Part shown: positions 2,560 through 2,617 of the stretch, piece by piece
Layout of the letters: the number at the start of each line of letters is the position of its first letter
How positions within the stretch are numbered: position 1 is the stretch's first letter
Virus record (IMG/VR): IMGVR_UViG_2693429518_000023
Length of the DNA: 10,738 nt
Strand: one strand, 5' to 3'
From: a virus
Lineage: Duplodnaviria > Heunggongvirae > Uroviricota > Caudoviricetes
Position numbers and translations under genes: made by a program
Notes under the pieces: model-generated
What the model was told of the DNA's origin: nothing
The model's input: only the letters and a program-made list of their open reading frames with translations
Databases searched by the model: none

Positions 2560-2617
2560 AAAAAGGGCGGCAGAGCAGTCACGGAGTAAAACTGATACCG
2601 CCAAACGTCACCAGAAA
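2560..2617 (-). ncRNA. dicF: DicF-like small RNA with 3' intrinsic terminator
   Basis: Minus-strand sequence UUUCUGGUGACGUUUGGCGGUAUCAGUUUUACUCCGUGACUGCUCUGCCGCCC followed by U5 matches my recollection of E. coli DicF (Qin prophage). It lies directly downstream of a 72-aa gene, as ydfC-dicF does in Qin. Ends are approximate; identity is from memory, not a search. Confidence 0.55.

Follow-up and report, generated by a model that had tools for sequence, protein, structure and literature searches.

The minus strand of the window (the whole stretch of 10,738 nucleotides that was analysed) carries at 2617..2565 a bona fide copy of the prophage sRNA DicF, in which every DicF feature that can be checked at the sequence level was found. 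Very probably, this copy lies in the 3' UTR of ydfC within the early-left operon of a prophage at potC, and was brought next to an exonuclease by a deletion of 1,651 bp. By its near-identity, in reverse orientation, to the prophage that E. coli O55:H7 DEC5E carries next to potC, the window itself is judged to be a lambdoid prophage from the potC site of an O55:H7-type strain. It is without the IS3 element of DEC5E and has an extra 19-bp deletion, which points to a sister strain and not to DEC5E itself.

A search with Rfam cmscan gave a match to RF00039 (DicF) at 2616..2565 (-) with 76.7 bits (gathering score 48; E = 6.1e-16). The match covers the full model, positions 1-52 of 52, with 0 non-canonical pairs, and adding the 5' U at 2617 gives the canonical 53-nt DicF. 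In an alignment with the Qin locus of K-12, the RNA is identical to K-12 dicF at every position, and the identity extends from approximately 80 nt upstream of DicF to 15 nt past the U-run. The initial annotation had proposed DicF for a segment ending in a U-run on the minus strand at 2560-2617 and had proposed a search with the Rfam DicF model; both the full-length match above the gathering score and the K-12 identity bear this out. The minus strand from 2617 to 2560 reads UUUCUGGUGACGUUUGGCGGUAUCAGUUUUACUCCGUGACUGCUCUGCCGCCC followed by UUUUU, the latter (2560..2564) being the U5 tract of the intrinsic terminator, which is conserved in the collected DicF loci. Both target-pairing regions are the same as in the experimentally characterised K-12 DicF, and the sequence is the commonest variant in our survey (68 of 117 loci).

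The terminator hairpin at 2566..2602 (-) is two-tiered, with an outer stem GGCGGUA..UGCCGCC and an inner stem CAGUU/GACUG, and was found in the MFE and the centroid fold (-15.9 kcal/mol), in the Rfam consensus and in an RNAalifold consensus of 62 loci. The z-score of the DicF fold (-1.8) is unremarkable alone, and a simple terminator scan missed the hairpin, as the internal loop in the stem and the 9-nt hairpin loop are outside the scan rules. What carries the assignment is therefore the score of the covariance model together with the K-12 identity, and not thermodynamics. PGAP leaves dicF unannotated in these records.

In K-12, DicF is Hfq-dependent and represses ftsZ, xylR, pykA and manX (PMC5069750). 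In EHEC, DicF activates pchA, and four dicF copies are present in Sakai and 86-24 (PMC7873438, PMC9438474). The 5' end is made by an RNase E cut of the operon transcript (PMC5069750, PMC9438474). According to these two papers, both citing Faubladier et al. 1990, the 53-nt form results from intrinsic termination together with RNase E processing, and a 72-nt form from RNase III processing of the read-through dicBF transcript; the same citation is given for the requirement, known since 1990, that genes distal to DicF in dicBF need read-through of the terminator. Given the identity to the K-12 RNA, the DicF of the window is expected to depend on Hfq, to repress ftsZ by base pairing and to cause filamentation when overexpressed. 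By analogy with K-12, formation of the 5' end by RNase E and the efficiency of termination would also be the same.

On the minus strand, the elements follow each other in the order repressor-like gene, RelB/RelE, hairpin, promoter-like site, ydfC, spacer, DicF, exonuclease ORF, xis and int, as in lambdoid early-left operons and in the dicBF operon of K-12. The ydfC gene (2959..3177 (-), RefSeq WP_001171930.1), from whose 3' UTR DicF would arise, is located 341 nt upstream on the same strand. The 341-nt spacer at 2618..2958 (-) is taken as DicF precursor RNA, a processing role described in PMC5069750 and PMC9438474. From ydfC through the DicF flank, the identity to K-12 Qin is 97.9%. Downstream, the excisionase gene xis (770..1039 (-), RefSeq WP_000003742.1) has the same direction of transcription. 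Two small ORFs are found on the opposite strand, one at 2791..2955 (+) within the spacer, listed by PGAP as the hypothetical protein WP_001331716.1, and one at 2426..2656 (+) across DicF. Probably neither ORF is genuine, and both are false calls within a conserved stretch of non-coding precursor RNA.

Upstream of ydfC, a repressor-like gene of 123 aa is found at 4764..4393 (-). A RelB/RelE-ParE toxin-antitoxin pair at 3901..4372 (-) is located between this gene and the putative PL, i.e. in the position of rexAB in lambda, and is followed by a hairpin with 22-bp arms at 3836..3882. We place a putative early-left promoter (PL or PdicB-like), with two overlapping operator-like palindromes, at 3789..3829 (-) from a promoter scan and the repeats. 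The promoter-like sequence TTGACT-16-TAAACT at 3816..3789 (-) matches the consensus at 9 of 12 positions; the scan gave 5 matches in the window against 4.0 expected, which is chance level. Palindromes of the type TTTAGT-N4-ACTAAA cover 3816..3789 and recur in the repressor/cro intergenic region at 4777-4832. The 9/12 match and the operator-like repeats common to the repressor/cro region suggest that 3816..3789 is probably the repressor-controlled leftward promoter of the DicF operon.

Apart from this operon, a full-length match to the sok antitoxin RNA (RF01794) is found at 9411..9586 (+), with 113.5 bits where the gathering score is 59; a hok/mok-type ORF at 9524..9736 (+) overlaps it. Positions 9567..9755 are 99.5% identical to the hokD (relF) region of Qin in K-12. 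DEC5E has lost this sok/hok segment, as an IS3-family element there replaces 8502..9995 of the window.

The neighbourhood of DicF was compared with two related prophages, the O157:H7 ompW prophage and the potC prophage of fS25a (loci L005 and L133), using blastn and base-level inspection. The window corresponds to the fS25a prophage minus positions 2850..4500 of the latter (1,651 bp). The joint is at 2545|2544, 15 nt after the DicF U-run, where the sequence reads ...AAUUUUGUG|UGAAGGAAG..., and on the right the break falls at the third base of codon 343 in the exonuclease gene. Against the O157:H7 prophage, two collinear blocks were obtained, which abut at the joint in the window and are 1,651 bp apart in the relative. 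Against fS25a, both flanks are 99.8-99.9% identical, with 1 mismatch and a separate 19-bp indel over 2.8 kb on the left, and 3 mismatches and 1 single-base gap over 2.5 kb on the right. The missing segment holds the dicB leader, dicB, ydfD and exonuclease codons 1-342, and it is because of this loss that DicF adjoins exonuclease sequence. Neither dicB nor ydfD is present downstream of DicF in the window, which leaves a DicF-only remnant of the dicBF operon. Base-level inspection found no microhomology at the joint; as the deletion is blunt, no mechanism by slippage or short homology can be claimed. From these comparisons, the adjacency of DicF and exonuclease is the product of a single strain-specific deletion and an ordinary feature of a decaying prophage.

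The rarity of the joint was assessed with a 201-nt probe centred on it. In 5,426 complete E. coli genomes, the DicF half was matched in 4,027 genomes at 10,440 places, with a median of 2 and at most 12 in any one genome, and a contiguous match across the joint was found only in O55:H7 DEC5E. In addition, 117 evaluable DicF loci were collected from viral contigs, representative genomes and fetched records, including the window and DEC5E. The leader GATG[C/T]GGTGAATGCGGCT follows the terminator in 115 of them; the two exceptions are the window and DEC5E. By this distribution, the DicF-exonuclease joint is a lineage-specific lesion and not a recurrent design.

Viral contigs were used for the collection because scanning genome contigs with a 22-base pattern gave only 7 DicF loci, too few for covariation. 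Nearly all of these came from Escherichia or Shigella; in addition, three contigs belonged to MAGs with the labels Veillonella, Collinsella and 'Proteobacteria bacterium'. The contigs of MAGs labelled Veillonella parvula (L009) and Collinsella sp. (L011), i.e. Negativicutes or Gram-positive bins, carry an exact DicF, and they are almost certainly mis-binned Escherichia prophage contigs. Among loci L013-L132, DicF positions 9-12, in the 5' single-stranded target-pairing region, are variable. GUGACG is changed to GUGACA in 7 loci (and in 3 more of a divergent AUUCUGG group), to GUGGCG in 3, to GUGACU in 3 and to GUAACG in 1, and the loop variant GUGGCUG is found in 7 loci. Such variants of the 5' region and the loop might shift target specificity between DicF copies. 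In a subset of the phages (L003, L010, L036, L038, L132), a kil-like gene and not dicB follows the conserved leader, and in phage Evi the gene after the leader is annotated 'Kil protein'. The DicF 3' leader would therefore be a shared module ahead of alternative division-inhibitor genes.

When the RNA from DicF to dicB of the intact O157 relative was folded, a perfect 21-bp long-range duplex was obtained (z = -4.1, with 0 of 200 shuffles as stable). Its 5' arm, AGUGAAUUUUGUGAUGCGGUG, begins 4 nt past the U-run, and its partner CACCGCAUCACAAAAUUCAUU lies directly before the ribosome-binding site of dicB; the arms are in alignment columns 63-83 and 215-236, and at 6344..6364 and 6473..6493 of locus L005. 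The same helix was recovered independently by RNAalifold on 62 non-redundant DicF loci, and it persists in phages with kil replacing dicB. Both arms are conserved, and the 130 nt enclosed by them have indels, replaced segments and at least 3 alternative insert types. Two variable positions in the duplex stay paired, one as C-G in 46 loci, U-G in 13 and U-A in 2, the other as G-C in 33 and G-U in 29. A double change was seen in 2 of the 57 predicted pairs of the whole consensus structure, i.e. covariation over the 62 loci is thin and the support comes mostly from conservation.

Nucleotide 72 of DicF, the reported end of the 72-nt form, is located halfway along the 5' arm of the duplex, a place at which an RNase III cut would be expected. 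Processing by RNase III to the 72-nt DicF, with release of the dicB mRNA, probably takes place at this duplex, where the 72-nt end is as given in the papers citing the 1990 work; the duplex might also control translation of dicB. With its conservation in 62 non-redundant loci, it is a specific structure to propose for the RNase III site described in 1990.

In the window, the 3' arm is wholly deleted, and of the 5' arm one third is gone. The surviving 13 nt of the 5' arm (AGUGAAUUUUGUG, 2545..2557 (-), located from the fold of the intact relative and the RNAalifold structure) have lost their partner, and no substitute complement of at least 10 nt was found anywhere in the window. The structured leader between DicF and dicB is thus absent. 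The fold of the read-through RNA, with z = +0.84, is uninformative; its MFE structure disrupts the terminator, which has no bearing on folding during transcription. With the 3' arm gone and no substitute for it, we infer that the window copy makes the terminated 53-nt form only, and that read-through would give an unprocessed DicF-exo'-xis chimera.

The following mechanism is proposed. The operon transcript would start, by analogy with K-12, at the repressor-controlled leftward promoter, probably near 3816..3789. RNase E would cut at the 5' end of DicF, and the hairpin at 2602..2566 with the U5 tract would set the 3' end, giving a 53-nt RNA. Being identical to the K-12 RNA, this would pair with the ftsZ, xylR, pykA and manX mRNAs, and in the EHEC lineage also with pchA mRNA. 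As the probable RNase III site went with the deletion, no form other than the 53-nt RNA would be expected, and transcripts reading through would remain chimeric.

The prophage carries further lesions. The integrase gene (1..801 (-)) has a -1 frameshift, seen in the comparison with the parent and flagged 'frameshifted' by PGAP: a run of A7 has become A6 near position 201, which shortens the ORF to 266 aa from the 372 aa of the fS25a parent. The left edge of the window coincides with the premature int stop codon. A dnaC-like ATP-binding replication gene at 6559..7299 (+) has a nonsense codon 65 at 6751..6753, where the O157:H7 copy has Gln and is intact. Finally, 19 bp (GTTTAGTGTTTTTTTGCGA) are missing at 4832|4833 relative to DEC5E, O157:H7 Z852, phage Evi and fS25a. 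This deletion removes one of three GTTTAGTG operator-like repeats between the repressor-like and cro-like genes, 11 nt upstream of the start codon of the cro-like gene (4843..5145 (+)), and could alter regulation of the immunity region. Taking the 1,651-bp deletion, the int frameshift, the dnaC-like nonsense codon and the operator loss together, the prophage is, to all appearance, locked in and decaying. Such decay fits a loss of dicB and ydfD that was either neutral or relieved toxicity.

The presence of several inactivating lesions within the same prophage also raises the question of whether the DicF copy is an inert relic in a repressed, decaying prophage, with the DicF of the cell supplied by other copies. 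The redundancy needed for this is indicated by the 3 matching places in DEC5E, the closest complete genome, and the dicBF promoter of K-12 is normally repressed (PMC5069750). We regard an inert relic as unlikely, though it deserves real weight. No mutation is seen from ydfC to the terminator, and the DicF is the same as the functional RNA of K-12; near 3789..3829, promoter and operators (both putative) are intact, and the 19-bp operator loss sits at the other promoter region, between repressor and cro. We therefore favour continued expression of the window copy, an expectation derived from the preserved sequence.

Another reading of the same deletion is that it produced a 'domesticated' DicF-only module, in which the toxic DicB and YdfD and the RNase III site are gone, only the 53-nt DicF is made, and the chimeric transcript could act as a reservoir or sponge of DicF or alter xis expression. 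If so, the output of the sRNA would be uncoupled from prophage toxicity in the O55:H7 lineage. This we consider improbable, and the deletion is treated here as a lesion of a decaying prophage.

What follows DicF is an ORF at 1101..2549 (-), found mechanically, of 482 aa. The initial annotation had described a large exonuclease gene with a TTG start lacking a Shine-Dalgarno sequence, about 10 nt past the DicF terminator. The geometry was correct: the TTG (2549..2547 (-)) follows the U-run on the same strand at a distance of 10 nt and is without a Shine-Dalgarno sequence upstream. It is not the start of a gene, however. The reading frame coming from the exonuclease stays open for two codons into the 3' flank of DicF, as far as a TGA at 2555..2553 that is in frame with the TTG and ahead of it. 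The 'start' without Shine-Dalgarno is an artefact, because the ORF crosses the deletion scar and the TTG is merely the first start-like triplet past the stop codon. Nor is the gene whole. Comparison with the parent, PGAP and Pfam agree on a 5'-truncated exonuclease pseudogene at 1101..2543 (-), corresponding to parent codons 344-823. PGAP classifies it in the potC prophage of DEC5E as a pseudogene, "incomplete; missing N-terminus". In relatives the gene is annotated as 'exonuclease VIII' or exonuclease; here it lacks both the full length of about 823 aa and a start and ribosome-binding site belonging to it, as about the 3' 481 codons of 823 remain. The remnant protein is identical to parent residues 344-823 at 480 of 481 positions and keeps the C-terminal Rv2179c-like DEDD 3'-5' exonuclease domain (PF16473, 9.8e-68, aa 301-472). 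From its sequence, the 482-codon TTG ORF is a promoterless pseudogene remnant without ribosome-binding site, and an example of how ORF calling across a deletion scar gives a spurious 482-aa "exonuclease".

The completeness of the PF16473 domain, the open reading frame and the near-identity to the parent would be in keeping with a remnant that is still expressed, from an internal start on the read-through RNA, as a separate DEDD exonuclease (Rv2179c-like, about 230 aa); an in-frame ATG at 1793 is in fact preceded by an SD-like GGAG. The near-identity may only reflect that the deletion is recent, and PGAP treats the remnant as a pseudogene, so we give such a product a slim chance and retain the pseudogene reading.

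The initial annotation had further suggested that expression of the exonuclease requires read-through of the DicF terminator, and that the sRNA may thus gate the exo-xis-int arm. The first part is true in a generic sense, as in intact relatives everything past DicF needs read-through or antitermination (PMC9438474); it is a published property of dicBF and not specific to the adjacency seen in the window. The second part did not stand. A terminator acting as a functional gate before an intact exonuclease gene, with designed read-through control of exo-xis-int, can draw on a real geometry: 10 nt separate the U-run from the TTG, both are on one strand, and xis and int are found further downstream. 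Against it, the exonuclease is a pseudogene truncated at its 5' end by the 1,651-bp deletion, the TTG is without Shine-Dalgarno and behind an in-frame stop codon, the integrase of the supposedly gated arm carries a -1 frameshift, and the joint is essentially unique to one lineage (1 of 5,426 genomes and 0 of the 115 other loci). We hold such a gate to be very improbable, and the adjacency to be a consequence of the deletion. That the joint is instead a mosaic boundary between phage modules, a natural alternative order, may be dismissed: mosaicism is known from lambdoid phages, the right flank is only 93% identical to the O157 ompW prophage as opposed to 99.6% for the left, and kil stands in place of dicB after the same leader in some phages, but such a boundary is ruled out by the fS25a potC prophage, which differs across two flanks of 99.8-99.9% identity only by the 1,651 bp, and by the retention of the whole leader in the kil phages, and the breakpoints fall inside codon 343 of a conserved ORF on the right and within a conserved RNA duplex arm on the left.

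DicF itself is already known, and the only new item is a strain-specific deletion allele. Its significance beyond annotation is small: the several DicF copies already known from EHEC/O55:H7 are joined by one more. Being without dicB, it could also be used as a naturally occurring DicF-only allele to tell DicF effects apart from DicB effects.

Among known systems, the dicBF operon of K-12 Qin (ydfABC-dicF-dicB-ydfD) has the same 53-nt DicF, terminator, 341-nt spacer after ydfC and first 15 nt of 3' flank as the window, with DicF in the same position, the 3' UTR of ydfC in a lambdoid early-left operon. The order given for Qin in the initial annotation, DicF ahead of dicB, is the one seen in this layout. 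In the window, dicB, ydfD and the leader with the duplex are deleted, and the truncated exonuclease pseudogene follows DicF instead. Upstream of ydfC, the window has the RelBE module and a different repressor where K-12 Qin has dicA-ydfA-ydfB. The complete arrangement of DicF, a leader of about 155 nt, dicB, ydfD (DUF1482) and an 823-aa exonuclease is found in phage Tritos, K-12 Qin and the O157:H7 ompW prophage. SroC in gltIJKL resembles DicF in being an intra-operonic sRNA made by early intrinsic termination and RNase E trimming, with downstream genes that need read-through (PMC9438474); it belongs to another RNA family with other targets, and only the mechanism is analogous.

The immunity region, RelBE, ydfC and DicF of the O157:H7 Z852 ompW prophage are 99.6% identical to the window over 6.3 kb. 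Multiple dicF copies have been described in EHEC (PMC7873438), and the multi-copy loci of EHEC O157:H7 (CP-933M/O/P and the Sakai Sp prophages) belong to the same phage family in the O55:H7/O157:H7 lineage; they keep dicB, ydfD and the full exonuclease, whereas the copy in the window is deleted and located at potC. The prophages of fS25a and 2013C-3342, which were found by a search with the exonuclease remnant and xis, occupy the same potC site and have the same repressor, RelB, RelE, YdfC and Xis proteins as the window (WP_001169687.1, WP_001302048.1, WP_001303511.1, WP_001171930.1 and WP_000003742.1). The gene order in fS25a is ydfC, DicF, dicB, ydfD, 823-aa exonuclease, xis and int. Unlike the window, both prophages have an intact dicB, DUF1482/ydfD, 823-aa exonuclease and 372-aa integrase, and have kept the 19-bp operator repeat.
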